A stretch of 44,515 nucleotides of DNA from a virus, in the UHGV virus genome UHGV-1858859, one strand, 5' to 3'. Every line of letters begins with the position of its first letter. Positions within the stretch are counted from its first letter, which is position 1. The notes beneath the pieces are model-generated. The model was given only the letters and a program-made list of their open reading frames with translations. It did not search any database and was not told the origin of the DNA. Below are positions 3,887 through 40,530 of this stretch, piece by piece. A program made the position numbers and the translations under genes.

Positions 3887-3898
3887 AGAGGACTCTAT

Positions 3899-15468: not shown

Positions 15469-15497
15469 CTTTTCTAAAATAATTAATATGGTACTAT
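15469..15497 (+). promoter_or_regulatory. candidate rightward extended -10 promoter with degenerate motif copy
   Basis: tggTACTAT (TG-n-TACTAT) at 15489-15497 with a poor -35 (cttttc); CTATTCA half-site at 15494-15500; about 30 nt upstream of the HTH gene. Confidence 0.35.
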
Positions 15498-15528
15498 TCA
15501 CATATCAACTAACTAAGGAGTAATTGTC

Positions 15529-18460: not shown

Positions 18461-18492
18461 TCTTAAACCCTCATTATCAGTTAACGAAACCG

Positions 18493-18521
18493 AGTATACA
18501 TTGCGAATAATGGGAAATCAA
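18493..18521 (-). promoter_or_regulatory. candidate sigma70-like promoter TTGATT-N17-TATACT
   Basis: Minus-strand reading ttgatt tcccattattcgcaatg tatact, about 30 nt upstream of the AlpA-like gene. Confidence 0.4.
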
Positions 18522-18892
18522 ACATAATTGCACCTATTGACATTATGAAAATCTTCGTTTAAGGTGCTTCTATATCTTAGTTACTTTGATTCCTGTTCAC
18601 CTTGTAAGAATGCTTAACCCGTGCGTTAAGCAAAGGGTTAAGCAGCAGGCTTACTGAACACGAGAATTATTGTAACTTTCCTTCCTAAGTATCTCCGGTT
18701 GCCCTGGGCAAGCTCTATTCTCATCGGCGGCATATCTCTTAAGTATCTGATTTTCTTAATGTGCCGTAGATTCGCAACCGTAAAAATGTAACGATTATTG
18801 GGCAGGCTTAGGGCCTGCCCTTTAGTTACCAAGTAATAAGAATAAAGGCACAACTCTACCTGAAGAATCACAACGGCAACGTAACTATTTTC

Positions 18893-18921
18893 TTGCACAC
18901 CCCAACATAATAGGATACTAT
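18893..18921 (+). promoter_or_regulatory. sigma70-like promoter TTGCAC-N17-TACTAT with embedded palindrome
   Basis: ttgcac accccaacataatagga tactat; motif ATAATAG-gata-CTATTCA at 18907-18924; a 36-bp block is repeated as an exact inverted copy at 40388-40423. Confidence 0.65.
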
Positions 18922-18946
18922 TCACTTATCGAAACGAGACAGATGA

Positions 18947-19147
18947 GTGAGGGTTATGTTTAAGAAGGGTCAGTTGGTGAAAACGATGTACGGTAGCTTA
19001 GGTATTATTGAAAAGAAATCGACAGTGTACCGAAGTTCTTATGTCGTTAGCTTACTCAGGGAGCACGGGTTAAGTTCCACGGCGTATTACCGAGAGTATG
19101 AAATGAAGCTCATCGGCAACAATTTTAAATTCAAAGGGGCGAAGTGA
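18947..19147 (+). CDS. hypothetical early protein
   Basis: First ORF downstream of the rightward promoter; start ambiguous (GTG 18947 or ATG 18956). Confidence 0.4.
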   Translation: MRVMFKKGQLVKTMYGSLGIIEKKSTVYRSSYVVSLLREHGLSSTAYYREYEMKLIGNNFKFKGAK

Positions 19148-20455: not shown

Positions 20456-20462
20456 AATTTAC

Positions 20463-20491
20463 TTGCACACTTGGATAGAATAGGCTACTAT
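20463..20491 (+). promoter_or_regulatory. sigma70-like promoter TTGCAC-N17-TACTAT with motif copy
   Basis: ttgcac acttggatagaataggc tactat; CTATTCA at 20488-20494; followed by leader cgaacgagaggagagacagaag-ATG. Confidence 0.65.
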
Positions 20492-20522
20492 TCATTTACA
20501 CGAACGAGAGGAGAGACAGAAG

Positions 20523-22448: not shown

Positions 22449-22757
22449 TTGGATAAATTTACTGAAACAGTGACAGGCTGGCTTCTCGCTGCCGCGCTAG
22501 CCGGAGGGGTAATCGGACTACGGCAACATAAGTCCGCTATTTCCGGCCCTATCGACGGATTCTGCTTTATCGCAACTGGCTTCACTTGCGCTGTATTTGG
22601 CGCACCTCTTGCCGCTCAATGGTTTGGCATCACAGGCGACCGTGAAATCGCCGGGTTGGGCTTCATTATCGCTATTCTCTGGATGCCTATCTATTCCCGC
22701 CTTTCTGGCATCGTCGCCGGAGAATACATTGCACGTCGAGGAGGTCCAGATGAATGA
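22449..22757 (+). CDS. holin-like membrane protein
   Basis: TTG start with strong GGAGGA RBS; several hydrophobic segments; immediately upstream of the endolysin. Confidence 0.5.
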   Translation: MDKFTETVTGWLLAAALAGGVIGLRQHKSAISGPIDGFCFIATGFTCAVFGAPLAAQWFGITGDREIAGLGFIIAILWMPIYSRLSGIVAGEYIARRGGPDE

Positions 22758-23022
22758 GTTATTCTGGTTCGGCGGTATGCTGGCAATCGGCGGCACATCG
22801 CTGTTTAATGTGTATCATCCCAGCGTGGACGACGGGTTATTCGGTCGGGTGCTCTATATCCTGACAGCTATCGTCTGCGCAGCCGGATGTATCCACCTGT
22901 TGCAGGGCAGCATGTCACCAACGCTGCCTGAGACATTAATCACATTAGTTGCGCTGCGCCAGATTCGTCAGGCGTGGCTGTCATACGGAGGACATAAGCG
23001 TGTCTCGAAACATTTCAGATAA
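22750..23022 (+). CDS. second small membrane protein of the lysis cassette (holin or antiholin candidate)
   Basis: ATG with AGGAGG RBS; two hydrophobic segments (FWFGGMLAIGGTSLF, LYILTAIVCAAGCIHLL). Confidence 0.45.
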   Translation: MNELFWFGGMLAIGGTSLFNVYHPSVDDGLFGRVLYILTAIVCAAGCIHLLQGSMSPTLPETLITLVALRQIRQAWLSYGGHKRVSKHFR

Positions 23023-23488
23023 TGGATTGCATTTTACCGCTGCGTTCGAGGGCTTCCGGGGAACCGCGTACCTCGCTACGCCGGATGAGAAGTACCTGAC
23101 TATAGGCTACGGGCATTATGGGCCTGACGTAACCCCGGGCAAGACCATCACGCCGGGGCAGGGTCTCCTGCTACTGAATCGCGATATGGCTAAGGCCGTA
23201 GCTGCGGTTGACGCTGCGGCGCACCATTCACTGACACAGGCGCAGTTCGACGCAGTGTGCGACCTGGTCTACAACGCAGGTGCTGGCGTGATTGCGGCTA
23301 CTACCGGCACGGGCAAGGCACTGCGTTCTGGTGATATTGTAACTCTGCGGGGTAAGCTGGCGCTGTTCATCAACCAGAACGGCAAACCATTACTCGGCCT
23401 GCGTCGCCGTACTGCGGGCCGTCTGGCCCTGTTCGACGGCAAACCGTGGCAGGAGGCAGAGGCTATCGGGCGCGCGGTGAAAGGTTGA
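23000..23488 (+). CDS. endolysin, GH24 (T4/lambda-type) lysozyme
   Basis: FEGFRGTAYLATPDEKYLTIGYGH catalytic Glu/Asp/Thr spacing; QFDAVCDLVYNAG; in-frame GTG with GGAGGA RBS. Confidence 0.75.
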   Translation: MSRNISDNGLHFTAAFEGFRGTAYLATPDEKYLTIGYGHYGPDVTPGKTITPGQGLLLLNRDMAKAVAAVDAAAHHSLTQAQFDAVCDLVYNAGAGVIAATTGTGKALRSGDIVTLRGKLALFINQNGKPLLGLRRRTAGRLALFDGKPWQEAEAIGRAVKG

Positions 23489-23544
23489 CACCTGAGACTA
23501 ATCCGACGATACTTAAATCACCTCCTGTTCCATCCCTCTGCTCT

Positions 23545-23580
23545 CCAGTTTTATCCCGGCCCTGACCCAGCCGGGATTTT
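23545..23580 (+). terminator. rho-independent terminator after the lysis genes
   Basis: cccggc-cctgaccca-gccggg hairpin followed by atttttatctatttt. Confidence 0.55.
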
Positions 23581-23666
23581 TATCTATTTTCTGCAATGAC
23601 TAGTTGACTATTACCTTAGACCCTATTATATTTACTCCATCAACAACGAGAACGGAGTAGAGAGAA

Positions 23667-23855
23667 ATGATGACTAAGATTAAACATACCGATGACTGGG
23701 GTGATTTCATGGAGATAGAGAAGTGCAGGGATGGTTCATTACTTATAACTTGCACCGACGGTGATAGTGACGAATGGGCTAATGTTAATGTGAGCCTGGA
23801 CGATTTTGAGATTATTGTTGAGCAGGTTATGGCGTTTTATGGAGATGTTAAATGA
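23667..23855 (+). CDS. hypothetical protein
   Basis: 62-aa acidic ORF with GGAG RBS. Confidence 0.4.
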   Translation: MMTKIKHTDDWGDFMEIEKCRDGSLLITCTDGDSDEWANVNVSLDDFEIIVEQVMAFYGDVK

Positions 23856-24001
23856 AAATCACAGATATCGAAGCATTCGAAGACGCACAACTGATGGCAC
23901 GCATTGCCGTTAGTAACCTAGGCGGAAGCATTCCTGCGGACGCGTTCTGGTCCGCAGGAATGCAGGCACTGAAAGCAGCTTATGCAGGAGATAAGAAATG
24001 A
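23852..24001 (+). CDS. hypothetical protein (49 aa)
   Basis: ATGA-coupled; below track cutoff. Confidence 0.3.
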   Translation: MKITDIEAFEDAQLMARIAVSNLGGSIPADAFWSAGMQALKAAYAGDKK

Positions 24002-24153
24002 GCGAACAAGGTCAAGTAAGTCAACCCTTACGAGTAGGCCGTAAAGTCAGTCACACCCCGTTCCCGACACGCGAGGAATTGATGAAACGTAACAGTTTCC
24101 CAGGGCCGGACAAGAACAAGTATCTCAATCGCATGTGGGGAGAGCAGAAATGA
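23998..24153 (+). CDS. hypothetical protein (51 aa)
   Basis: ATGA-coupled at both ends; below track cutoff. Confidence 0.3.
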   Translation: MSEQGQVSQPLRVGRKVSHTPFPTREELMKRNSFPGPDKNKYLNRMWGEQK

Positions 24154-24338
24154 CTGATCGTGAATACGAAAAGATGATGGTGGACGCTGCAAATGGAAAA
24201 ACGCAGAATGCTAAAGCTGAAATAGGGATACTCGATAAGCGGATAGAAGAACAGGCTCGATACCTTGACCGCCTTATGGAACGCCGCCGTGAACTGATTA
24301 ATCGCTTCAACCTGAACAAAGGTGACGCCAATGCCTAA
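24150..24338 (+). CDS. hypothetical coiled-coil protein
   Basis: ATG at 24150 (MTDREYEK) overlapping the upstream stop. Confidence 0.4.
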   Translation: MTDREYEKMMVDAANGKTQNAKAEIGILDKRIEEQARYLDRLMERRRELINRFNLNKGDANA

Positions 24339-24570
24339 AATAACAATCGCATCACTTGAGCGCCGTATCCTGGTACTTGAGTCAGAGAAACAGACGTTAG
24401 GTGGGCAACTGTCGATTAACGGTGAGTTTCAACTGGAGGCGTTTAAGTTGTTACTTGATAAGTTGAAAGCGGACGAAAAGCCTTGCGCGCATGACTACTA
24501 CATGCATTTAGTTGATGGGGTACATCGGGTTACATGCATTAAATGCGGTAAAGCGTATGGAGTCGCCTAA
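24331..24570 (+). CDS. hypothetical protein with C-terminal zinc-ribbon-like motif
   Basis: CAHDYYMHLVDGVHRVTCIKCG; start overlaps the upstream gene. Confidence 0.4.
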   Translation: MPKITIASLERRILVLESEKQTLGGQLSINGEFQLEAFKLLLDKLKADEKPCAHDYYMHLVDGVHRVTCIKCGKAYGVA

Positions 24571-24739
24571 ACCAGTAGTTATAGATGGCGTCCTGTGGAA
24601 ACCCTACTCGGTTAACCACATCGACGCCGACGGGAAGAAGTTCAGCTTCTACATTTTTGCAATTAGCCGCGAACACGCCGCCTGTGTGGTCGATGATATA
24701 CGAGAAACGGCGTGGCTTGGCGATGAGGTAGTGGGGTGA
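24557..24739 (+). CDS. hypothetical protein
   Basis: ATG at 24557 (MESPKPVV), overlapping the upstream gene. Confidence 0.4.
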   Translation: MESPKPVVIDGVLWKPYSVNHIDADGKKFSFYIFAISREHAACVVDDIRETAWLGDEVVG

Positions 24740-24741
24740 TT

Positions 24742-24912
24742 ATGTTCAGTGACATCAACGCAGCAATCGAAGAAGCAATATGGCGGCGCTATAACGGCGA
24801 GCAACAGCGGCACTTTTGCCTCGTGCAACGCGGTAACATGATTGCCGTAGTGCAGGACCGCGATAACAAATATCCGAATGCAATGTGGACGACGAGGAAT
24901 TTCGTAGGATGA
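24742..24912 (+). CDS. hypothetical protein (56 aa)
   Basis: ATG 3 nt after the upstream stop; stop overlaps the next ATG (ATGA). Confidence 0.3.
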   Translation: MFSDINAAIEEAIWRRYNGEQQRHFCLVQRGNMIAVVQDRDNKYPNAMWTTRNFVG

Positions 24913-25145
24913 TTACCAGCATTCCGAACCTGATTAAAGAATACGGCACGATGGCGGAGACGTGCCGACGGACCGGCATCAACGAAATGACGATTGCAAA
25001 GTACAGCAAAGACGTTAACTGCGAGCGCCACGTAATTTATAACAACCGTCTTATGACGCATGTTAAGACAAGCCCGGTGTTATTCACTCGCCGCGGTATC
25101 ACTAAAACTGAGCAACGCATTGCTAAAGAGGAGAGTGAGGAGTGA
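24909..25145 (+). CDS. putative small DNA-binding protein
   Basis: HTH-like segment AETCRRTGINEMTIAKYS. Confidence 0.35.
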   Translation: MITSIPNLIKEYGTMAETCRRTGINEMTIAKYSKDVNCERHVIYNNRLMTHVKTSPVLFTRRGITKTEQRIAKEESEE

Positions 25146-25307
25146 AAAAGTTAACTGTCTACCGGAAAACCGGCGCTACGTCAGAACTCGATGTTTTCAG
25201 TGTAACGCAGTGTGAGAAGTTCTGGTGCGCAGAAACATTCAACGGAGAAGTGAGAATACCAATCGCACTGGCAGACGGCGGCGATATAACCGAATAGTCA
25301 CACCACA

Positions 25308-25331
25308 AGCCCTCTACGGAGGGCTTTTCTG
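25308..25331 (+). terminator. rho-independent terminator closing the early region
   Basis: agccctc-tacg-gagggct hairpin followed by tttct. Confidence 0.55.
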
Positions 25332-25424
25332 TACATCCTGCCTAATCCCCTTATATAATCCCTTTAGACGCGTAGGGCGCGTCTGGTGCGCTCTGATGGT
25401 CAGACGCATATGCAAGGGGATTCT

Positions 25425-25970
25425 ATGAAGCTGAAACTCAAGCAGCCATCGCCAGAGGTGGTGCAAGCTGCACATGAAGAAGCCGTTAGCGCAAACCGTC
25501 GCCGTAAACGACCGCGCGGTAAACAGAGCATTTATCAATCATCCCGTAATTCCGCCGCGTTGTGGGACCCGGACTATTGCGATGCATTGATTCGTTTCTT
25601 CGACCGCACGTCATGGGAGCTTGTACCTACGTCTAAGGGTGACGAACGCCCGCTGATTCAGGACAAACCGCCGTCACTGGCCCGCTTTGCCTTACGCATC
25701 GGCGTCACTATCCCGATTATTAAGCTGTGGCTGCGCGAGATTCCCGCATTCGCAGAAGCATGGGAGACAGCGCAGGCATTGGAAGAGGCATACTTCACTG
25801 AGACAGGGGCCGCAGGTATCTCTGCTACGTTTGCCGCTGCGAAACTTGGCCTTGGCAAAGAGAAACCAGTTGAATCCGCCGAAGAAACGGCACCGACTGA
25901 GATTATTTTCAGTGTTGCGGAGCCTGTAGGTAAAATTGTAACAACGAACATGGGTGAGGTAGAGGAATGA
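25425..25970 (+). CDS. terS: terminase small subunit
   Basis: Immediately upstream of and overlapping terL; basic N-terminus and HTH-like segment; start chosen at ATG 25425 with AAGGGG RBS. Confidence 0.55.
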   Translation: MKLKLKQPSPEVVQAAHEEAVSANRRRKRPRGKQSIYQSSRNSAALWDPDYCDALIRFFDRTSWELVPTSKGDERPLIQDKPPSLARFALRIGVTIPIIKLWLREIPAFAEAWETAQALEEAYFTETGAAGISATFAAAKLGLGKEKPVESAEETAPTEIIFSVAEPVGKIVTTNMGEVEE

Positions 25971-27217
25971 GTATTCAGCTATCCGCGCCGCAGGCACTGT
26001 TCCTGAATTGTGACAACAAATACAAGGCCTACGTAGGCGGCTTCGGTAGTGGCAAGACGTTTGTCGGCTGCCTTGACCTGCTTACGTTTATGCTTAAGCA
26101 CCCCGGTACGCGCCTTGGTTACTTCGGCCCGACCTACCCGGCTATCCGCGACATCTTCTACCCGACATTCGAGGAAGCTGCTAACCTCCTGGGCCTTGAT
26201 GTGCTGGTTAAATCCGGCGACAAAGAGGTCGTCGTTACGAGAGGTAAGACAGTAATCGGTACAGTAATCTGCCGTTCGATGGATAACCCAGGCTCTATCG
26301 TCGGTTTCAAAATAGCCGCGGCGGTCGTTGATGAACTGGACGTTCTGAGCCGCGAGAAAGCGGAACTGGCGTGGAACAAAATCGTAGCCCGTATGCGTCT
26401 GGTTATCCCTGGAGTGGTAAACCACATCTCCGTTACCACGACACCGGAGGGATTCAAGTTCGTCTACGCCAAGTTCAAAGAGAACCCGACACCGAGTTAC
26501 TCAATGGTGCAGGCTTCCACCCACGAGAACGCGCGATTCCTGCCGCCTGACTACATTAGCTCGCTGACCGAGACTTACCCAGCGCAACTGATTAACGCGT
26601 ACCTGAATGGGGAGTTCGTTAACCTGACATCCGGCAGCGTCTACTACGCCTACGACCGACGTAAGCATCGCAGCAAAGAGACAATCCAACCGGGCGACAC
26701 GCTGTACATCGGGCAGGACTTCAACGTTACGAAGAACGCCAGCGCCGTGTATGTGCAACGTAAAGACGGCTGGCACGCGGTAGCAGAACTGAAGGGCCTG
26801 TTCGATACGCCAGATACCGTGCGTGTGATTACCGAGAAGTGGAAGTCGCAAGGCCACCGCATCGTCGTTTACCCGGACGCCAGCGGCAAGAACCGCAAAA
26901 CCAACTCGGCGTCAATCTCCGATATCGCCTTACTACAGCAGGCCGGTTTTGATGTTCGCGCTAAATCCGCCAACCCACCGGTTAAAGACCGTGTTTTAGC
27001 CGTGAATACCGCGCTGGAAAAAGGTAAGCTGTGGGTTAACGACCACTTATGCCCTGAGATAGCGAAGACGCTGGAGCAGCAGGCATATGATGATAACGGA
27101 GAGCCTGCTAAAGACGGCGTCATTGACCATATGGCGGATGCTCTCGGCTATCCTGTAGTTTATGAGATGCCGGTGGTTAAACCAGTAATCAACATCCCGG
27201 TGACTTTCGCACTTTAA
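25967..27217 (+). CDS. terL: terminase large subunit
   Basis: Walker A GGFGSGKT, Walker B AAVVDELD, C-terminal nuclease-like acidic motifs (GQDFN, DASG, DHMADALG). Confidence 0.85.
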   Translation: MSIQLSAPQALFLNCDNKYKAYVGGFGSGKTFVGCLDLLTFMLKHPGTRLGYFGPTYPAIRDIFYPTFEEAANLLGLDVLVKSGDKEVVVTRGKTVIGTVICRSMDNPGSIVGFKIAAAVVDELDVLSREKAELAWNKIVARMRLVIPGVVNHISVTTTPEGFKFVYAKFKENPTPSYSMVQASTHENARFLPPDYISSLTETYPAQLINAYLNGEFVNLTSGSVYYAYDRRKHRSKETIQPGDTLYIGQDFNVTKNASAVYVQRKDGWHAVAELKGLFDTPDTVRVITEKWKSQGHRIVVYPDASGKNRKTNSASISDIALLQQAGFDVRAKSANPPVKDRVLAVNTALEKGKLWVNDHLCPEIAKTLEQQAYDDNGEPAKDGVIDHMADALGYPVVYEMPVVKPVINIPVTFAL

Positions 27218-27229
27218 GAGGATTATTCA

Positions 27230-28711
27230 ATGTTAACTATGAACGGTCAGAATCAGGGTGTTAAGACAAAACACCGGGAATGGCTGCATCACTTCAATAA
27301 ATGGCAGAAGGTGCGCCACGCGCTGGAAGGCGACCTCATCCGTTACCTGCGCAATGTCGGGAAGAACGAGCCTGACCCGACCTATGCGGCACAGCGCCAG
27401 GAAGAATACGAGAACGGCGCTATCTGCTACAACTTCACTAAACGTACCCTGGCGGGGATGGTCGGCAGTGTTATGCGTAAAGACCCTGAGCAGATTATCC
27501 CGCCTGAACTTGAGTACCTGTTACGCAACGCTGACGGTTCGGGCGTCGGGCTATGGCAGCACGCGCAGGATACTTTGATGGAAATTGACTCGGTAGGTCG
27601 TGGCGGGTTGCTGGTTGATGCACCAGAGACCGCCGCAGCAACGGCAGCCGAACAGAACGCAGGATTATTAAACCCGGTCATCGCATTCTACACCGCGGAG
27701 AACATCATCAACTGGAGACTGACCCGCGTCGGTTCAGTTAACCGCGTGACAATGGTCGTGTTGCGCGAAGTATGGGAATACTCTGAACCCGGTGCAGAGT
27801 TCGAAACAAAGTTCGGTGAGCAGTATCGCGTTCTCGATTTGATTGACGGGCGCTACCGCCAGCGCATTTACCGCTTCGATGCCGAAGGTGGTGTTCATGG
27901 TGAAGTAATCGAAATATTCCCGGAACTTGGCGAACAGTTACGCGGCAAAATCCCGTTCACGTTCATCGGGGCAAGCAACAACGATGCCGCCATCGACGAC
28001 GCACCTTTGCTACCGTTAGCTGAGCTGAATATCGGGCATTTCCGTAACAGCGCGGACAATGAAGAGTCCAGTTTCGTTGTAGGCCAGCCCACTCTGTTCA
28101 TCGCCCCGGGCGAGAACATGAGCATGGAACAGTGGAAAGAGGCCAACCCACACGGCGTGCGCATGGGGTCTCGTTCAGGCCATAACATCGGGTACGGCGG
28201 CAACGCGTTTCTGGTTCAGGCAGGGGAGAACAACCTGGCTAAGCAGAACATGCTGGATAAAGAGAATCAGGCCATCCAGATTGGCGCGCAGCTTATCACC
28301 CCGACGCAGCAAATAACCGCTGAATCGGCCCGCCTGCAACGTGGTGCGGATACGTCTGTTATGGCGACAATCGCACGTAACGTAAGCATGGCGTACACCG
28401 ATTCGTTGCGCTGGGTGGCTGCGATGCTAGGGTTGCGTGAAGGCACAGAGATTGAGTTCAAACTTAACATGGAGTTCTTCCTGCAACCGATGACCGCTCA
28501 GGACCGCGCTCAGTGGATGGCGGACATTAATGCCGGTCTGCTGCCAGCGACCGCTTACTACGCCGCGTTGCGTAAAGCAGGGGTGACTGACTGGACCGAC
28601 GAGGATATTCAGAACGCTATTGAGGACGCACCTCTGCCGTTAGGTGCTGTTACTCAGGTGGCAGGAGAGATTCCGCAGTCGGCGCAGCAACAAGATGTCA
28701 CTCAGCAGTAA
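27230..28711 (+). CDS. portal protein
   Basis: 493 aa immediately after terL; size and position typical of portal. Confidence 0.7.
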   Translation: MLTMNGQNQGVKTKHREWLHHFNKWQKVRHALEGDLIRYLRNVGKNEPDPTYAAQRQEEYENGAICYNFTKRTLAGMVGSVMRKDPEQIIPPELEYLLRNADGSGVGLWQHAQDTLMEIDSVGRGGLLVDAPETAAATAAEQNAGLLNPVIAFYTAENIINWRLTRVGSVNRVTMVVLREVWEYSEPGAEFETKFGEQYRVLDLIDGRYRQRIYRFDAEGGVHGEVIEIFPELGEQLRGKIPFTFIGASNNDAAIDDAPLLPLAELNIGHFRNSADNEESSFVVGQPTLFIAPGENMSMEQWKEANPHGVRMGSRSGHNIGYGGNAFLVQAGENNLAKQNMLDKENQAIQIGAQLITPTQQITAESARLQRGADTSVMATIARNVSMAYTDSLRWVAAMLGLREGTEIEFKLNMEFFLQPMTAQDRAQWMADINAGLLPATAYYAALRKAGVTDWTDEDIQNAIEDAPLPLGAVTQVAGEIPQSAQQQDVTQQ

Positions 28712-28721
28712 GTTCACATAT

Positions 28722-28744
28722 AGCCCCGAAAGGGGCTTTCTTAT
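28722..28744 (+). terminator. stem-loop / partial terminator after the portal gene
   Basis: agcccc-gaaa-ggggct hairpin followed by ttcttat. Confidence 0.45.
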
Positions 28745-28780
28745 AGTATGCTATTAACTTTAGCGCCACAGGGTTTATCT

Positions 28781-29824
28781 ATGAGCTTACTTACATCTCT
28801 AATCAGCCACCAGATATGGCTGCAACGCACTGCATCCGGTGAGGTGAAAGACCTCGCGCCGTTCATTAAGGAGATGCGGGACGAAATAAAACGGCAGGTG
28901 CTGTTATTCGGTGACGACGGGCGGAGCACTGCGCGACTGAATAAGCTGTTACTCGACCTTGAAGAAGCACTGACGGGGCTTACAGGCGACTGGCAAACAA
29001 AGCTGACAGAAGACCTTAAGGAACTGGCCGCATATGAGGCTGAGTGGAACGTAAAAACACTGACCGCCAACGTTGACGCGGAATTTGTTACGCCTACCGC
29101 CGAACAGGTGTGGGCTGCTGCCGAGTTTCAGCCGCTGTCGTTAAGCGACAAGCCCGTCGATTTCACTAAGCTGATGGCAGGCTGGGGTGAAACGGAGGCC
29201 GCGCGCCTCGTAACCGGCGTTAAGATGGGGTTTGTTCAGGGCCAAACCACACGGCAGATTGTTAAAAATGTCGTAGGCGCTGGTGGGCTGGCGGACATCT
29301 CTGAACGCAACGCGGCTACGGTAATCCGCACCGCGCTGTCTCACGTATCCAACGAAGCCCGCAACGAGACATACCGCCAGAACGACGACATCATCGAGAA
29401 ATACGAATGGGTGTCAACGCTGGACAGCCGTACCAGTACGATTTGCAGGGCCAGAGACGGGATGACGTGGGAAATCGGTAAAGGTCCGATGCCCCCCGCC
29501 CATTTTGGATGTCGAAGTACCACTGCACCGGTAATAAGTTCGGAGTTCGACTTCCTAGATAAAGGTGCAAAACGCGCGGCTAATGGTGCGGACGGCGGTA
29601 TGCAGGTAAGCGCAGACACCACCTATTACGAGTTCCTGAAACAGCAACCGGCATGGTTCGTGGATGAAGCACTCGGACCTACCCGCGGTGCTATATTCAG
29701 GAATAGTGGGATATCCCCAGAGGAATTCCGGGTAATATCCGTCGACGCTTTTGGTAGACCTTTAACCTTGAAGGAGATGGCGGCGTTAGATAACAGGGTT
29801 GCTGAATATCTTAGGTCGGTATAA
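28781..29824 (+). CDS. head morphogenesis protein (Mu gpF / SPP1 gp7-like)
   Basis: Conserved C-terminal motif STLDSRTSTICRARDGMTWEIGKGPMPPAHFGCRST; start chosen at ATG 28781 downstream of the hairpin. Confidence 0.65.
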   Translation: MSLLTSLISHQIWLQRTASGEVKDLAPFIKEMRDEIKRQVLLFGDDGRSTARLNKLLLDLEEALTGLTGDWQTKLTEDLKELAAYEAEWNVKTLTANVDAEFVTPTAEQVWAAAEFQPLSLSDKPVDFTKLMAGWGETEAARLVTGVKMGFVQGQTTRQIVKNVVGAGGLADISERNAATVIRTALSHVSNEARNETYRQNDDIIEKYEWVSTLDSRTSTICRARDGMTWEIGKGPMPPAHFGCRSTTAPVISSEFDFLDKGAKRAANGADGGMQVSADTTYYEFLKQQPAWFVDEALGPTRGAIFRNSGISPEEFRVISVDAFGRPLTLKEMAALDNRVAEYLRSV

Positions 29825-29882
29825 AGTATATCTAGTAGCTAGCTTTGGTCGGTGAACTACTAAAAATAGAGAAAGAATATAA

Positions 29883-29938
29883 CCCCATGAAGGTATGCCT
29901 ATCTCTGGCATCGACCAATCTTCATGGGGTTTTCTTAT
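29883..29938 (+). terminator. long stem-loop with T-run
   Basis: ccccatgaag ... cttcatgggg 10-bp arms with a 27-nt loop, followed by ttttcttat; encloses the ATG at 29895 used by the track. Confidence 0.4.
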
Positions 29939-29948
29939 AGGGTTTAAT

Positions 29949-30518
29949 ATGGGAATTGTTTTTGGTGTGGGTATTAACGATGTTTCACCAATAAGTTGCG
30001 GAGGGGTGCATATAGCGTCCTACGCCGTATGGAAGAACATGTTAAAGAGGTGCTACGACAAGAAATGGCAGCAAAGAAACAGAACTTATATAGGTTGCCG
30101 TGTGTCGGACGATTGGTTGGTGTCCAGTAATTTCAAGGTCTGGTCTGATGATTTTTATGTACCTGGGTGGCAGATAGATAAGGATTTACTTAACCCGGGA
30201 AATAAGGTTTACGATGCTTCTAACTGTGTTTTCATCCCTAAATCCCTCAATACTTTCCTAACAGCCCACGACGCTCTTCGAGGCGAACACCCACTCGGCG
30301 TACATTTCCATAAACAAAAGAAAAGATTCATCGCTCAAGTATCCGTGGATGGCGTATCTGAACAAATAGGCGCTTACGAAACCGCTCAAGAGGCACACGT
30401 AGCATGGTTTCATAGAAAAATTGAATTAGCATATGAATACAAAGGTCTTTGCGATAGCATAGACCCACGCCTTTTCGAAGGCGTCTTACGTAAGATTAAC
30501 TCAATGAAAGAGGTTTAG
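29949..30518 (+). CDS. HNH-family homing endonuclease with C-terminal AP2 domain
   Basis: N-terminal WKNMLKRCY ... WQIDKDLLNPGNKVYDASNCVFIP nuclease-like region; AP2-like HKQKKRFIAQVSVDGVSEQIGAYETAQEAHVAW. Start uncertain (ATG 29949 chosen). Confidence 0.55.
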   Translation: MGIVFGVGINDVSPISCGGVHIASYAVWKNMLKRCYDKKWQQRNRTYIGCRVSDDWLVSSNFKVWSDDFYVPGWQIDKDLLNPGNKVYDASNCVFIPKSLNTFLTAHDALRGEHPLGVHFHKQKKRFIAQVSVDGVSEQIGAYETAQEAHVAWFHRKIELAYEYKGLCDSIDPRLFEGVLRKINSMKEV

Positions 30519-30521
30519 TTT

Positions 30522-30980
30522 ATGGGCTTTTTTAAAGTAACTGATGTGCCGTCGCGTCGCGTAGTCCAGTACGCCCGTGTATCCGGTTCTGGTGAGAACG
30601 TAACCTACGTTGAAGATGAAAGTGTACTAGGTACACCTGTAGACGAGATGCCGTATGCGGACAAGACCGGTATCGCACTCTCTGCTGCTGGTATGCTTTA
30701 TGAGATTCCGTATCTGGCAGATGCTGGTGATGTGTATTTCTCTGTGCAACCGAAAGACACCGAGCTGGTCGACGGTAGCGCCACCATCACTGTCGAAGTT
30801 AAGGCGGGTAAAGCGCCGTATGTACTGACCTGGTACAAAGACGGGAAGGAAGTGGTGAACGCCCCGGAAGAGGCTCTGTCTCTGACTGTTAATGCGGCTG
30901 GTGAATACTTCGTTAAAGTTACTGATGCCGATGGTGCGGAGGCCGTAAGCAAAGCGGCGAAGGTCTCTAAACCAGGATGA
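30522..30980 (+). CDS. Ig-like domain protein (possible capsid decoration)
   Basis: PYVLTWYKDGKEV ... EYFVKVTDADG pattern of an Ig-like fold. Confidence 0.45.
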   Translation: MGFFKVTDVPSRRVVQYARVSGSGENVTYVEDESVLGTPVDEMPYADKTGIALSAAGMLYEIPYLADAGDVYFSVQPKDTELVDGSATITVEVKAGKAPYVLTWYKDGKEVVNAPEEALSLTVNAAGEYFVKVTDADGAEAVSKAAKVSKPG

Positions 30981-30983
30981 TAA

Positions 30984-31014
30984 AAGGCCCCATAATGGGG
31001 CCTTAGTTTTATTT
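30984..31014. terminator. bidirectional rho-independent terminator
   Basis: aaggcccc-ataat-ggggcctt hairpin with T-runs on both strands (agttttattt on plus, ttttatcatc on minus); lies between convergent genes. Confidence 0.6.
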
Positions 31015-31530
31015 AAATCGCGCAGGCATTAACACCATAAAGGCCGTGTTTGAAAATTGTATTTTGCATCCTCTGGTTTGGTCCTGGAAATCGAAACGAG
31101 CAATTTCATTTTTGTATGCCTTAGAAATCTTGTACGCGTCTGCCAAATAGCGCAGAGTGAACCCTATACTGTCGACAACACCCGGTGTGATGTGCGCCAC
31201 GCGTCTCCAGTCAGGAAAGTTTCCTTCTACAACATCTACCGGAAGTGTACATATAAGCGCACGATTATCGTCATAGAAAGATACACTGCCGTTGTCGTGG
31301 TTTACCTCTGCGTAGTTAAATTTAGAAGGCTCTCTCCCTTTGATGTCTATGAGAGTCCCTTTCTCAACGTTGGTCTTCACATTGTCGCAGAACAATCTAT
31401 GACCGTCCGTAGACACTATCAATCCTTCAGGGTCTATGTAAAAAGCGTTCAAATAGTAGCGAACATCATTTTTAGCCCTGCATATTTTCGCCCCTACATA
31501 CGCAGGGAAAGTAATTACTGTAGTAACCAT
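31009..31530 (-). CDS. truncated DnaN (DNA polymerase III beta sliding clamp)-like protein
   Basis: DVRYYLNAFYIDPEGLIVSTDGHRLF, VVEGNFPDWRRV and C-terminal AFMVLMPARF match E. coli DnaN segments (DVRYYLNGMLFE...ATDGHRLAV, VDGRFPDYRRV, AYVVMPMRL) recalled from memory; only 173 aa against 366; AGGAG RBS and own promoter. Confidence 0.6.
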   Translation of the reverse strand: MVTTVITFPAYVGAKICRAKNDVRYYLNAFYIDPEGLIVSTDGHRLFCDNVKTNVEKGTLIDIKGREPSKFNYAEVNHDNGSVSFYDDNRALICTLPVDVVEGNFPDWRRVAHITPGVVDSIGFTLRYLADAYKISKAYKNEIARFDFQDQTRGCKIQFSNTAFMVLMPARFK

Positions 31531-31556
31531 TTCTCATCTCCTGTTTAAGTTAACTG

Positions 31557-31585
31557 AATAGTACCCTATTATGTTGGTGCGCGCA
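31557..31585 (-). promoter_or_regulatory. sigma70-like promoter TTGCGC-N17-TACTAT with embedded palindrome
   Basis: Minus-strand reading ttgcgc gcaccaacataataggg tactat, with ATAATAG-ggta-CTATTCA. Confidence 0.6.
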
Positions 31586-31861
31586 AACTATTTATTTACG
31601 TATTCCAGTTATTCCACTCAATTGTAAACGTTGGAATAAACTATTCGAATAGTTGACTTTTCACTGAAAATATGATAAGCTCCACCTGAGCTTGTGAAGT
31701 ATGAGCAAGCGACCGCGGCGCGGGCAGGTAACGGAGCGGGACGTAAGTCCTGAGTGTAGTTACGCTGACGCGTTCGGAAGGGCCATACTCTATTGCTTGT
31801 GTAAAAAGTAACTGGTTTACTGAGATTACGCCGTTTCTATGTTTAAATGATAAGGACTAGC

Positions 31862-31888
31862 GCCCCGCTTTAAGGCGGGGCTTTACTT
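31862..31888 (+). terminator. stem-loop with short T-run just upstream of the Rz-like gene
   Basis: gccccgc-tttaag-gcggggc followed by tttactt; function unclear (terminator or attenuator-like). Confidence 0.35.
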
Positions 31889-31905
31889 ATTGAGAAAGGG
31901 GAAAC

Positions 31906-32292
31906 ATGAATCTTAAAGCAACTGTCGTAGCCGGAGCATGTTTCGTCGTCCTAGCCTACGCACACGGCATCTATCAATACCGCAGCGGCTGGGGTGAAGG
32001 CCGTGCTAATCTCGTTTCGCAGCAACAGCAGAAAGCACAGGCTGAGCTGACGAAGAAAACACAACGGCAGCAGCAGGATGAATCAAAGGCCGCCGCCGCT
32101 GACAACGAAGGCAAGACGAAATCAGAGGTGATTACCCGTGAAGTCGTTAAGTACATTAAAACGCCTGGCCGCAGCGTGTGCACTTTCGACGATGCTCGCG
32201 TCCTGCTCAAGTCCCACGCCGTTGCCAACGCCAATTCCATCCCCGGATACGACGATGATGCAGCCGCCGTGCAAACTGGCACCGCCAAGTAG
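31906..32292 (+). CDS. i-spanin (Rz-like)
   Basis: N-terminal transmembrane segment (ATVVAGACFVVLAYA), Gln/Lys-rich coiled-coil region, overlapping lipoprotein ORF in another frame; AAGGGGA RBS. Confidence 0.6.
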   Translation: MNLKATVVAGACFVVLAYAHGIYQYRSGWGEGRANLVSQQQQKAQAELTKKTQRQQQDESKAAAADNEGKTKSEVITREVVKYIKTPGRSVCTFDDARVLLKSHAVANANSIPGYDDDAAAVQTGTAK

Positions 32293-32401
32293 CGACGCTG
32301 ACGAGGATTTAGCTATCGACGTTCAGAACGCCGAATGTGTACGGCAACTGAGACTGAAAGTGTTCATGTTGCAGGATTACGTGAGGAATATTCTGGAATA
32401 G
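32138..32401 (+). CDS. o-spanin (Rz1-like lipoprotein), overlapping the i-spanin in another frame
   Basis: Lipoprotein signal with lipobox LASC, followed by Pro-rich mature region; begins inside the Rz-like gene and extends past its end. Confidence 0.6.
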   Translation: MKSLSTLKRLAAACALSTMLASCSSPTPLPTPIPSPDTTMMQPPCKLAPPSSDADEDLAIDVQNAECVRQLRLKVFMLQDYVRNILE

Positions 32402-32483
32402 TTGCCTTGTATGTTGGAATAATTTATTCTTGACATGTAAATCCGGGAGGCCCGGATTCCAACGTCCAGGGGACATACTGACT

Positions 32484-33185
32484 ATGAATCGTTTTTTACA
32501 CTATCCGTTCCAGGAAGAAGCTGGGGCAGAAGATAAATCTGGCGGTGGCGACGCTCCAAAAATGTTCACCGCTGAAGAAGTTCAGGCGCTGATTGAGAAA
32601 GAAGTTGCCGGGCTTAAGGCTAACCAGGAAGCATTGCTGGCTGAGAAGAAAGAAGCCGCTCGTAAAGCAAGAGAGGCCGAAGAGGAACGTCAGCGCGCGC
32701 ACCAGGAGGCGCTAAAAGCCGCCGGTAAGATGGACGAGTTCGAAAAGACGATTCGTAGCCAGTATGACCCGGTGTTAGCCGAGAAAGATGGTCGCATCAC
32801 CAAAATGGCTGAGCGCATCCTCGGCAGCGAACGTAAAGCGGTGTTAGGCTCTTTCGCAGGTGACTTTATTACCCCGGAAGCAGTAGACATTCTTGCTCCG
32901 TTCGTTAAGACTGAGTTCGAAGGTGATGATGTGGTTACTAAGTTTGTTGGGCCAGACGGCGGTGTAATCACGACTGACCCTGAACAGTTCCGCAAATACC
33001 TGCGCGAACACAAAGCGTTTTCGCATTTGATTAAAGCAAATGCAGCTTCCGGCGGCGGGGCTTCCGGTGGTAAAGGCGGCGGGGCCGCACCAGCGTTTAA
33101 AGACATGAGTGAAGCGGAGCGTTTAGCTCTGTATAAATCGAACCCTGCCGAATTTGAACGGCAACTTAAAGCCCTGAGGAAATAA
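32484..33185 (+). CDS. scaffolding protein
   Basis: Charged, alpha-helical, Ala/Glu/Lys-rich protein immediately upstream of the major capsid gene; ATG at 32484 chosen. Confidence 0.55.
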   Translation: MNRFLHYPFQEEAGAEDKSGGGDAPKMFTAEEVQALIEKEVAGLKANQEALLAEKKEAARKAREAEEERQRAHQEALKAAGKMDEFEKTIRSQYDPVLAEKDGRITKMAERILGSERKAVLGSFAGDFITPEAVDILAPFVKTEFEGDDVVTKFVGPDGGVITTDPEQFRKYLREHKAFSHLIKANAASGGGASGGKGGGAAPAFKDMSEAERLALYKSNPAEFERQLKALRK

Positions 33186-33187
33186 TA

Positions 33188-34237
33188 ATGGCAATTACCA
33201 CTATCGGCGATATCGTAACTGGCAACATCCCGGTCCTGGCGTCTTATATGACCGAGGACCCGGTAGAAAAAACCGCGTTCTTTCAGTCTGGTATTCTGAC
33301 CCCGACCCCATACGCTGCCGAGATTGCCCGCGGCCCGTCCAACGTCGCTAATATTCCGTTCTGGAAAGCGATTGATACTTCTATCGAGCCTAACTACTCG
33401 AACGATGTATACCAGGACATCGCCACCCCGCGTAACGTGCAAACCGGCGAGATGATGGCCCGCGTTGCGTACCTGAACGAAGGTTTCGGCCAGGCGGATT
33501 TGACCGTTGAACTGACCAGCCAGAACCCGCTGCAATCTGTGGCTTCTCGCCTGGATAACTTCTGGCAGCGCCAGGCACAACGCCGTCTGATTGCTACCGC
33601 GCTCGGTCTGTACAATGACAACGTAGCCGCTACCGACGCATACCACGAGCGGAACGACATGGTAATTGACGTGTCCTCTACTCTGGGCTTCGATGCAGGC
33701 GCGTTCATCGACGCCACCCAGACTATGGGCGACGCGCTGATTGGCAACGGCGGTGAAGTGCTGGGTGCTATCGCGATGCACAGCTTTGTTTACGCGCAGG
33801 CCCGTAAGCAGCAGCTCATCGACTTCGTGCGTGACGCGGACAACAACACCATGTTCGCCACCTACCAGGGCTACCGTGTGATTGTTGATGACAGCATGAC
33901 CGTAGTCGGTACTGGTAATGACCGCAAGTTCATCAGCATCATCTTCGGCAACGGCGCTATCGGTTACGGCGAAGGGTCTCCGTCCAACCCGTTGGAATAC
34001 GAGCGCGAAGCGTCTCGCGGCAACGGCGGTGGCGTTGAAACCCTGTGGACCCGTAAGACCTGGTTGCTGCACCCACTGGGCTACAGCTTTACCAGCGCAG
34101 TAATCACCGGTAACGGCACCGAGACCGTCGCACGTTCTGCTTCCTGGCAGGACCTGGCGAACGCTTCCAACTGGAATCGTGTGGTTGACCGTAAGCACGT
34201 ACCTATTGCCTTCCTGGTAACTGGTGTCGGGGCTTAA
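33188..34237 (+). CDS. major capsid protein
   Basis: 349 aa directly after the scaffold gene and before a terminator; size and position typical. Confidence 0.75.
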   Translation: MAITTIGDIVTGNIPVLASYMTEDPVEKTAFFQSGILTPTPYAAEIARGPSNVANIPFWKAIDTSIEPNYSNDVYQDIATPRNVQTGEMMARVAYLNEGFGQADLTVELTSQNPLQSVASRLDNFWQRQAQRRLIATALGLYNDNVAATDAYHERNDMVIDVSSTLGFDAGAFIDATQTMGDALIGNGGEVLGAIAMHSFVYAQARKQQLIDFVRDADNNTMFATYQGYRVIVDDSMTVVGTGNDRKFISIIFGNGAIGYGEGSPSNPLEYEREASRGNGGGVETLWTRKTWLLHPLGYSFTSAVITGNGTETVARSASWQDLANASNWNRVVDRKHVPIAFLVTGVGA

Positions 34238-34252
34238 GGTTAAGATATAATC

Positions 34253-34281
34253 GAGAGGGACTTCGGTCCCTCTTTTCATTT
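34253..34281 (+). terminator. rho-independent terminator after the major capsid gene
   Basis: gagaggga-cttcg-gtccctct hairpin followed by tttcattt. Confidence 0.5.
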
Positions 34282-36762: not shown

Positions 36763-37154
36763 GTTTCGCGCTGGACGTCTCTAAGTTTGTGGAAAAGGCG
36801 AAGAAGAATCCTGAGAAGGTGATGCGTCAGGTGTCTATCAAGCTGTTTTCCGCTATCATAAAGGCTAGTCCAGTGGACACCGGCCGCTTTCGTATGAACT
36901 GGATGGCGTCTGGTGGTACTTCTGCTTCCGGGATTACGGACGCCACCGATAAATCAGGAAACACGGCAACCGGAAACGCTACAAGTTTCGTACTGAAAGC
37001 CACCGACTGGCACGAGTTCACGCTAACAAATAATCTGCCGTATGCTCAACGGCTGGAGTATGGTTGGTCGCAGCAAGCGCCGCAGGGCATGGTCAGGACT
37101 AACGTGTCTCGCTTCCAGCAACTCATTAACGAAGAAGCCAACAAGGTGAAATGA
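36759..37154 (+). CDS. neck / tail completion protein
   Basis: ATGA overlap with the upstream gene; positional assignment. Confidence 0.4.
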   Translation: MSFALDVSKFVEKAKKNPEKVMRQVSIKLFSAIIKASPVDTGRFRMNWMASGGTSASGITDATDKSGNTATGNATSFVLKATDWHEFTLTNNLPYAQRLEYGWSQQAPQGMVRTNVSRFQQLINEEANKVK

Positions 37155-40353: not shown

Positions 40354-40394
40354 GGGGTAGCTCCTGTTTGAGTTAACATTGTTGGTGTAAGTGA

Positions 40395-40423
40395 ATAGTA
40401 TCCTATTATGTTGGGGTGTGCAA
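40395..40423 (-). promoter_or_regulatory. sigma70-like promoter TTGCAC-N17-TACTAT, exact inverted copy of the 18893 promoter block
   Basis: Minus-strand reading cttgcacaccccaacataataggatactattcactt is identical over 36 nt to plus strand 18892-18927. Confidence 0.65.
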
Positions 40424-40530
40424 GTAATGTGTTAGAATTATTTTGCGCCTAGTGTCGCACACGAAAAGCGGGTGGTTCCCGTCTGGCGCATTAACCTTAA
40501 CCAGTAACCTCTTAACCAAAGGATTAAAGA

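Follow-up and report, generated by a model that had tools for sequence, protein, structure and literature searches.

Holin–endolysin and spanin genes at separate loci of a Kagunavirus genome, with a conserved, possibly structured leader before the spanin pair

Results

Organization of the lysis genes

In the virus genome UHGV-1858859, analysed here over its whole length of 44,515 nucleotides (nt; hereafter the window), the predicted lysis genes lie at two loci. Two holin-family genes and an endolysin gene are found at 22449–23488, and an overlapping pair of genes for an inner-membrane spanin (i-spanin) and for its outer-membrane counterpart (o-spanin) at 31906–32401 (Table 1). Judged by its nucleotide matches, the window is essentially a whole Kagunavirus (Guernseyvirinae) genome, that of a 44.5-kb siphophage of Escherichia coli. 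Phage Ivi is about 90% identical to positions 19000–43900, over 86% of the length, and looser matches to the window were obtained for about 500 Kagunavirus and Jerseyvirus records. The lysis-cassette region matched 131 records and the spanin region 278. Nucleotide identity of the spanin region to records annotated as i-/o-spanin was 94–99.8%, the closest being phage fPoEco01 (99.8%). Each of the five lysis proteins found a match among the lysis families of PHROGs (E-values 1e-18 to 1e-54).

Table 1. Genes and sequence elements at the two lysis loci and in their surroundings (positions in the window; RBS, ribosome-binding site; aa, amino acids).
Feature	Position	Strand	Details
Holin-family membrane protein 1	22449–22757	+	102 aa, TTG start, three hydrophobic segments
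Holin-family membrane protein 2 (holin or antiholin partner)	22750–23022	+	90 aa, AGGAGG RBS
GH24 (T4/P22-lysozyme type) endolysin	23000–23488	+	162 aa, GTG start
Terminator-like hairpin	23553–23583	+	ATCCCGGC-9 nt-GCCGGGAT then TTTTATCT; read from sequence; closes holin/endolysin unit
Hoc-like immunoglobulin (Ig)-domain head decoration protein	30522–30980	+	phrog_3945, E = 3.6e-84; upstream border of the slot
Terminator-like hairpin after decoration gene, bidirectional	30984–31004	both	terminator scan
Accessory beta-clamp-like gene	31009–31530	-	173 aa; phrog_3007/947; weak PF02767
TATTCC/GGAATA repeat array with palindrome GAATA-N3-TATTC	31601–31646	+	GAATAAACTATTC; candidate regulator-binding site just 5′ of promoter
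Promoter-like TTGACT-17 nt-TGaTAAGCT, extended -10	31653–31681	+	predicted from sequence
Putative structured non-coding leader or small RNA	31682–31861	+	conserved core 31709–31787; covariation-supported
GC-rich hairpin, terminator-like or RNA-stabilising	31862–31890	+	GCCCCGC-TTTAA-GGCGGGGC (stem-loop 31862–31881) plus TTTACTTATT
i-spanin (Rz-like)	31906–32292	+	128 aa, N-terminal transmembrane segment, periplasmic Cys92
o-spanin (Rz1-like outer-membrane lipoprotein)	32138–32401	+	87 aa, GTG start, GAGG upstream
Second GGAATA cluster	32385–32436	+	palindrome GAATAATTTATTC abutting TTGACA; between o-spanin and scaffold genes
Scaffolding protein	32484–33185	+	annotations in Ivi and Snoke; sequence
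Major capsid protein	33188–34237	+	annotation

The i-spanin matched phrog_2536 (Rz-like spanin, E = 2.1e-54) and has a single Kyte-Doolittle hydrophobic segment within residues 1–23 (about 3–23), with none further on. For a 97%-identical i-spanin the record of phage Snoke gives an N-in/C-out TMHMM topology, and the bulk of the protein is predicted to be periplasmic. In the o-spanin, the signal MKSLSTLKRLAAACALSTMLAS is followed directly by Cys23, the lipobox being LASC, and fits both the G+LPPv2 and the PS51257 core patterns. The residue at +2 is serine, i.e., the Asp inner-membrane retention signal is absent. The mature part contains 10 prolines among its 64 residues together with Cys45 and Cys67, and the protein matched phrog_5672 (4.7e-30) and phrog_1267 (2.3e-18). 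Reading in the +1 frame, the o-spanin gene begins within the i-spanin gene, with an overlap of 155 nt, and extends 109 nt past its stop; 8418 nt separate the endolysin stop from the i-spanin start. These results bear out the initial annotation, made from the letters and open reading frames (ORFs) of the window, which had described an Rz-like gene, an overlapping Pro-rich Rz1-like lipoprotein with lipobox LASC that runs past its end in another frame, a distance of about 8.4 kb to the endolysin gene and a position inside the head module, directly 5′ of the scaffold and capsid genes; for the last point the coordinates agree with the annotations of Ivi and Snoke. When all ORFs of at least 35 aa on both strands of the window were inspected, 32138–32401 was the sole one with a lipoprotein signal preceded by a Shine-Dalgarno sequence. 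The genome thus has a single spanin candidate, at 31906–32401.

Whether the pair is coding was examined with 27 distinct spanin pairs of 496 nt, taken from related loci. In all 27 the two frames were open, and lipobox Cys23, Cys45 and Cys67 of the o-spanin and Cys92 of the i-spanin were invariant. At position +2 of the o-spanin the relatives carry S, Q, N or R, never Asp. In the non-overlapping parts, codon position 3 varied about three times more than positions 1 and 2 (0.197 vs. 0.07 and 0.212 vs. 0.03–0.065), and in the overlap the codon periodicity tracked the i-spanin frame. This pattern of variability looks as expected for two real overlapping genes, and the invariant periplasmic cysteines would be available for intermolecular disulfides.

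The holin-like proteins and the GH24 lysozyme that the initial annotation had placed at 22449–23488 were recovered as well. Its coordinates for holin 1 and for both spanins stood, and the starts of holin 2 and of the endolysin had to be moved to 22750 and 23000. Holin 1 has the RBS GGAGGA 7 nt 5′ of its TTG start and matched the holin family phrog_2359 (E = 1e-29). Holin 2 starts at ATG 22750 and not at 22597, in agreement with the annotation of relatives; it matched the holin family phrog_2508 (E = 1.9e-33) and has one strong hydrophobic segment (28–55), weaker others and a basic C-terminal tail, HKRVSKHFR. Hydrophobic segments, to be expected from the transmembrane prediction proposed in the initial annotation, are present in both holins and in the i-spanin. 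Each holin-family protein is small, has at least one membrane segment and is encoded next to the endolysin, in a gene that overlaps the following one. A holin is annotated at the coordinates of holin 1 in the records of fFiEco03 and Bas71, which annotate the endolysin as well, and in the Schulenberg genome announcement the two membrane proteins are labelled a holin/antiholin pair.

The endolysin start is GTG 23000, not 22949, as in the annotation of relatives and in PDB entry 8HP8, which also begins VSRNIS. The protein matched PF00959 (7.2e-26; 91.4 bits, curated cut-off 22.3) and, over residues 1–161 and with few substitutions, 8HP8 itself, ‘Endolysin mtEC340M’ (E = 2.8e-95). Hydropathy analysis revealed no hydrophobic segment anywhere in the protein, the N-terminus included. 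Together with the PF00959 match, this indicates a soluble, canonical holin-dependent GH24 muramidase and not a signal-anchor-release (SAR) endolysin.

Right after the endolysin stop, the stretch 23485–23632 contains a promoter-like TTGACA-17 nt-GATACT, the hairpin listed in Table 1 and a second promoter-like site (23604–23632), and the holin/endolysin genes thus look like a separately bounded unit. The hairpin was not reported by the consensus terminator scan, probably owing to its 9-nt loop. The locus is part of a block on the plus strand, made up of small ORFs of unknown function, which runs into terS and starts with two copies, at 18887 and 20457, of a 53-nt repeat bearing a sigma70-like promoter. 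Such a layout is compatible with early or middle transcription; the label ‘early’, used in the initial annotation, is tentative, and our literature search on transcription in the subfamily found no Guernseyvirinae transcriptome. A long promoter-like consensus, TTGCAC...CAACATAATAGGATACTATTCA, is repeated at block boundaries (18887–18939, 20457–20509, and about 15484–15500), with minus-strand copies at 31551–31601, aimed at the clamp-like gene, and at about 40388–40424.

That holin/endolysin and spanin genes are separate in these phages is known from earlier annotations and publications. In the GenBank entries of Snoke, Schulenburg, Sciku, Shashou, and Ivi, i- and o-spanin are annotated at this place, with the genes for scaffold and major capsid protein following immediately. 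According to the Schulenberg genome announcement, the spanins are genetically apart from holin and endolysin, and the same split is described in the fBC-Eco01 paper. Kongari et al. (2018, BMC Bioinformatics 19:326) defined ‘Jersey’ i-/o-spanin families with 27 members, including Jersey, SETP3, K1G, K1H, and K1ind1–3, and reported the 155-bp overlap, an 8-bp variant in FSL_SP-031, and the constant o-spanin residues Cys45 and Cys67. We also recovered the FSL_SP-031-type variant with its 8-bp overlap among the relatives.

The interval between the decoration and scaffold genes

To compare gene order, the capsid protein was used as query, which yielded 80 related loci; 84 loci were compared in all (L numbers, here and below, denote loci of related phages). 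About 50 of the 84 carry a spanin-type pair 0.8–1.9 kb 5′ of the capsid gene. The architecture of these pairs varies, with overlaps of 155, 143, or 4–8 nt or with the o-spanin gene fully embedded, and the embedded, lambda-like Rz/Rz1 pairs have no detectable similarity to the spanins of the window. In the embedded group, L052, L066, and L085 (Serratia phage Eta), relatives with capsid proteins 85–89% identical to that of the window, holin and endolysin genes directly precede the spanins, and the whole cassette (2662–3876, 3019–4229, and 25533–26741, respectively) occupies the interval from the Hoc-like to the scaffold gene. The N-terminus of the L066 endolysin looks SAR-like by eye. Denyes et al. 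(2014, Virol J 11:6) called the placement of the Eta lysis cassette ‘unique’; seen against the Guernseyvirinae, it appears to be the same slot.

The slot is bounded by the terminator-like hairpin after the decoration gene and holds, besides lysis genes, promoters, a variable opposite-strand accessory gene (moron) and, in L052, tRNA-Met (2166–2243). We infer from these comparisons that the decoration–scaffold interval is a recombination-prone lysis slot. Kagunavirus and Jerseyvirus would keep only the spanins in it and the holins and endolysin near terS.

The opposite-strand gene in the window, 31009–31530, occurs in only 11 of the 84 loci and is therefore regarded as an accessory moron. An early-type promoter repeat precedes it. 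PHROGs give the protein the label ‘RusA-like resolvase’, the Snoke record that of ‘DNA polymerase III sliding clamp’. Upstream of the slot, a free-standing HNH homing-endonuclease ORF (29895–30518; phrog_953, E = 5e-77) lies between the Mu F-like morphogenesis gene and the Hoc-like gene; in Snoke, an intein in the head morphogenesis gene is found in its place. At the other border, the scaffold start is given as TTG 32430 in Snoke and as ATG 32484 in Ivi. ATG 32484 is the probable start, favoured by a conserved promoter-like site and stem-loop at 32431–32460.

Conserved elements upstream and downstream of the spanin genes

The 375-nt intergenic region before the i-spanin gene shows 95–99% identity in 147 of 181 phage records and is more conserved than its flanking genes. 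Among these records are Salmonella phages in which the spanin genes reach no more than 60–80% identity. Within it, a repeat array, a promoter-like site, a GC-rich leader of about 200 nt and a hairpin follow one another (Table 1). The promoter architecture is conserved in every copy of the leader module, the paralogous ones described below included, and the TATTCC/GGAATA array is conserved upstream in Kagunavirus, Jerseyvirus, and L038-type regions. Of the palindrome GAATA-N3-TATTC the genome has only two copies, at 31634 and at 32417. Both stand just 5′ of a TTGAC hexamer, and the spanin genes lie between them. A search for TGTTGGAATAA with mismatches gave no more matches than chance, and the tighter search for GAATA-N(1–5)-TATTC was specific, with two sites. 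We regard both as candidate binding sites of a transcription regulator. The stretch between the o-spanin and scaffold genes is 96–100% conserved in kagunaviruses and 81–91% in more distant relatives; in it, the second GGAATA cluster is followed by a stem-loop with compensatory changes.

The hairpin at 31862–31890 ends the leader 25 nt 5′ of the i-spanin ATG and has a predicted folding free energy of about -16 kcal/mol. Compensatory changes in relatives convert a C-G pair to G-C and U-A. Kagunavirus has a moderate U-tract behind it (TTTACTTATT), Jerseyvirus a poor one (TTAGCGTAT).

Folded as a single sequence, the leader is unremarkable (z-score -1.58), and the case for a structure rests on covariation. 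In an alignment of the whole leader (34 sequences), 93.9% of the cells were paired, with 12 pairs changed on both sides and a covariation score of 0.147, as compared with 35–43%, 2–5, and about 0.025 in slid controls; for the 79-nt core (20 distinct sequences) the values were 88%, 9, and 0.266 against 28–48%, 1–4, and 0.016–0.075, the structures in both cases being derived from, or fitted to, the same sequences, which represent few lineages. Five sequence variants keep the same three helices by means of different base pairs, and frequent G-U pairs are compatible only with the plus strand. In the predicted structure of the RNA, three helices that covary surround a GAGC/GAGUGUAG internal loop; this loop is conserved, and so are the flanking GCGACCGCGG and UUCGGAAGGGCC.

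A covariance model of the core (31709–31787) recognized exactly one copy in the window. Rfam 15 gave no match at gathering thresholds for the whole window and none at E ≤ 1 for 31500–31950, and ARAGORN detected no tRNA or tmRNA. Scanning of genome contigs with a 16-mer of the core returned only scattered matches in unrelated taxa, which we take as chance. In Eta-like and L038/L051-type leaders the covariance model recognized no copy, the only match being the fragmentary GCGACCGC...CGGAAGGGCC with E = 0.36; homology of these leaders to that of the window is suggested only by eye. The 36-aa ORF annotated in Snoke (31701–31811) was rejected as coding, as 1-nt indels interrupt it in L010, L012, and L013 of the 34-sequence alignment and its ATG is absent in the Jersey-type rows.

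Some kagunaviruses have a second, divergent copy of the module with the same promoter, located between a helix-turn-helix regulator gene and the early plus-strand block. An example is 1195–1460 of L086 (fFiEco03 36794–37059), and others are L130, L134, L138, and L105. In these copies stems B and C differ in sequence and the pairing is kept. At the corresponding position of the window, 18461–18862, there is an unrelated non-coding stretch of about 400 nt ending in a strong terminator, GGGCAGGCTTAGGGCCTGCCC TTTAGTT (18800–18820), which may be a different small RNA gene.

Discussion

The lysis genes of the window, with their membrane and lipoprotein signals, their family membership, their conservation and the synteny of the slot among relatives, lead us to conclude with high confidence that they form one complete, canonical three-step lysis system for a Gram-negative host, encoded at two loci. 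The biochemical functions, topology, and timing of the proteins are proposed here on the model of phage lambda. By analogy with lambda S and R, a holin, or a holin/antiholin pair, would permeabilise the inner membrane and set the lysis time, and the cytoplasmic endolysin would then reach and degrade the murein. The i-/o-spanin complex, already spanning the periplasm, would destroy the outer membrane once the murein is degraded, as lambda Rz/Rz1 does. In the lambda paradigm, spanins are thought to be inert while the murein is intact. If spanin action is blocked in the same way here, the spanin genes would need no linkage or co-timing with the holin, and unlinked spanins fit the view that these proteins are restrained by intact murein rather than by the timing of their expression. 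Behind the o-spanin gene, the terminator scan detected no terminator ahead of the scaffold and capsid genes, the next terminator-like site following the capsid gene at 34253, and the spanins are therefore probably made along with the late head proteins. Their genes would come first in the transcription unit of scaffold and capsid.

Several observations weigh against such a system. Among Pfam and NCBIfam models, the i-spanin has only a sub-threshold DUF2514 match and the o-spanin and both holins have none, and a PDB sequence search with the i-spanin returned no solved homologue. The holin class I and II labels disagree between database records, and either of the two membrane proteins may be the holin or the antiholin. 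The terminator-like hairpin 25 nt 5′ of the i-spanin implies that spanin expression needs read-through, processing, or antitermination. In the literature consulted, we came across neither a complementation nor a knockout experiment on a Jersey-family spanin. As the pair at 31906–32401 is unlinked to holin and endolysin and has no match among the curated spanin models of Pfam and NCBIfam, the two proteins might instead act in superinfection exclusion or receptor masking, as do T5 Llp and the Cor lipoproteins, and be expressed with the virion genes. We consider this role very improbable. An overlapping pair of a transmembrane protein and a lipoprotein, with a Pro-rich o-spanin and invariant periplasmic cysteines, is a spanin signature; the matches to PHROG Rz-like spanins are strong, and K1ind2 and K1G are listed in the curated Jersey families. 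In addition, the genome contains no other spanin candidate, and Eta-like relatives hold a classical embedded Rz/Rz1 pair after holin and endolysin in the very same slot. An explanation of the split by recent rearrangement, or by an artefact in the assembly of this one genome, has only the unusual position of the pair in its favour. It was rejected as next to impossible: more than 100 independent records of Kagunavirus and Jerseyvirus, and dozens of metagenomic contigs as well, show the same gene order, which the initial annotation had proposed to compare in related phages.

What the elements around the spanin genes do is a more tentative matter. Our proposal, which we regard as possible and hold with limited confidence, is that an undescribed cis-acting RNA module controls the spanin and late-head transcription unit of Guernseyvirinae. 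Its parts would be the extended -10 promoter, the flanking GAATA-N3-TATTC operator-like palindromes, the structured RNA of about 200 nt and the hairpin before the i-spanin. The leader could work by antitermination or attenuation in the manner of put or tR′, could form a 5′ domain that stabilises the transcript, or could be a stand-alone phage small RNA (sRNA). Alternatively, 31653–31890 may comprise only a promoter, a spacer, and an ordinary terminator, or a 36-aa ORF, its conservation being due to recent recombinational spread. The unremarkable fold z-score and the ORF annotation in Snoke favour this explanation, as do loci L043, L059, and L082, in which the element has moved between lineages with the neighbouring decoration gene, and the covariation tests used structures derived from, or fitted to, the sequences tested. 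Yet the ORF is broken by indels and lacks its ATG in the Jersey-type rows, and the helices are kept through different pairs, with covariation of 0.147 and 0.266 where no control exceeded 0.075. The G-U pairs fit the plus strand only, and a paralogous copy with the same promoter is present at a second locus. On this evidence we consider the alternative less likely than not.

With respect to the split itself, our results indicate that routine annotation holds for this genome and that spanin genes need no linkage to the holin–endolysin pair. The decoration–scaffold slot appears to be a conserved home of lysis genes, filled either by non-homologous spanin cassettes or, in Eta-like phages, by a whole cassette. 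It offers a reason, in evolutionary terms, for the split and illustrates how a position can be conserved while the cassettes in it are replaced. Should the structured RNA have a function, it would represent a new regulatory RNA of phages, in a group widely used for therapy and biocontrol, and if it is true that it gates read-through into the spanin genes, expression of both spanins and capsid would be gated by RNA.

Among known systems, the Jersey families of Kongari et al. (2018) come from the same phage group and share with the window pair the architecture, the 155-bp overlap, Cys45 and Cys67 and the lengths of 128 and 87 aa. There is no material difference, and the pair is another member of these families. 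Phage Eta likewise has the slot between Hoc-like and scaffold/capsid genes, in a head module that is about 85–89% identical at the level of the capsid protein, with divergent promoters and an opposite-strand moron upstream. In Eta, however, the slot accommodates a whole lambdoid-type cassette (holin, endolysin, embedded Rz/Rz1), whereas in the window it contains only the unrelated Jersey-type spanin pair, the holins and endolysin being elsewhere.

Lambda Rz/Rz1 resembles the window pair in combining a type II inner-membrane protein with a small Pro-rich lipoprotein encoded in the +1 frame, and the two pairs presumably share the role of disrupting the outer membrane after murein degradation. 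In lambda, the whole of Rz1 is embedded and S and R stand directly before the pair, whereas the o-spanin of the window outruns the i-spanin and the pair lies 8.4 kb from holin and endolysin; its proteins showed no significant sequence similarity when compared with the Pfam models of Rz/Rz1. T4 (e, t and pseT.3/pseT.2, all unlinked) and T7 (3.5 distant from 17.5 and 18.5/18.7) are further cases of dispersed lysis genes. In both, as in the window, lysis genes are scattered and the spanins are encoded away from the endolysin, although the spanin genes are separated in T4 and embedded in T7 and the genomes are of unrelated types.

For the leader, the closest parallels are promoter-proximal RNA elements that govern read-through into lysis and late genes, namely the lambda pR′–6S RNA–tR′ late leader and the put RNAs of HK022. 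No sequence or Rfam relation of the window leader to these was detected, no Q-like factor was identified, and the Jerseyvirus hairpin, unlike lambda tR′, is without a good U-tract. The order of elements is nevertheless that of lambda pR′–6S–tR′, with a promoter, a non-coding transcript of about 200 nt (predicted in the window), a terminator-like hairpin and then lysis and head genes, and the second module copy behind another promoter in some genomes recalls HK022 putL and putR.

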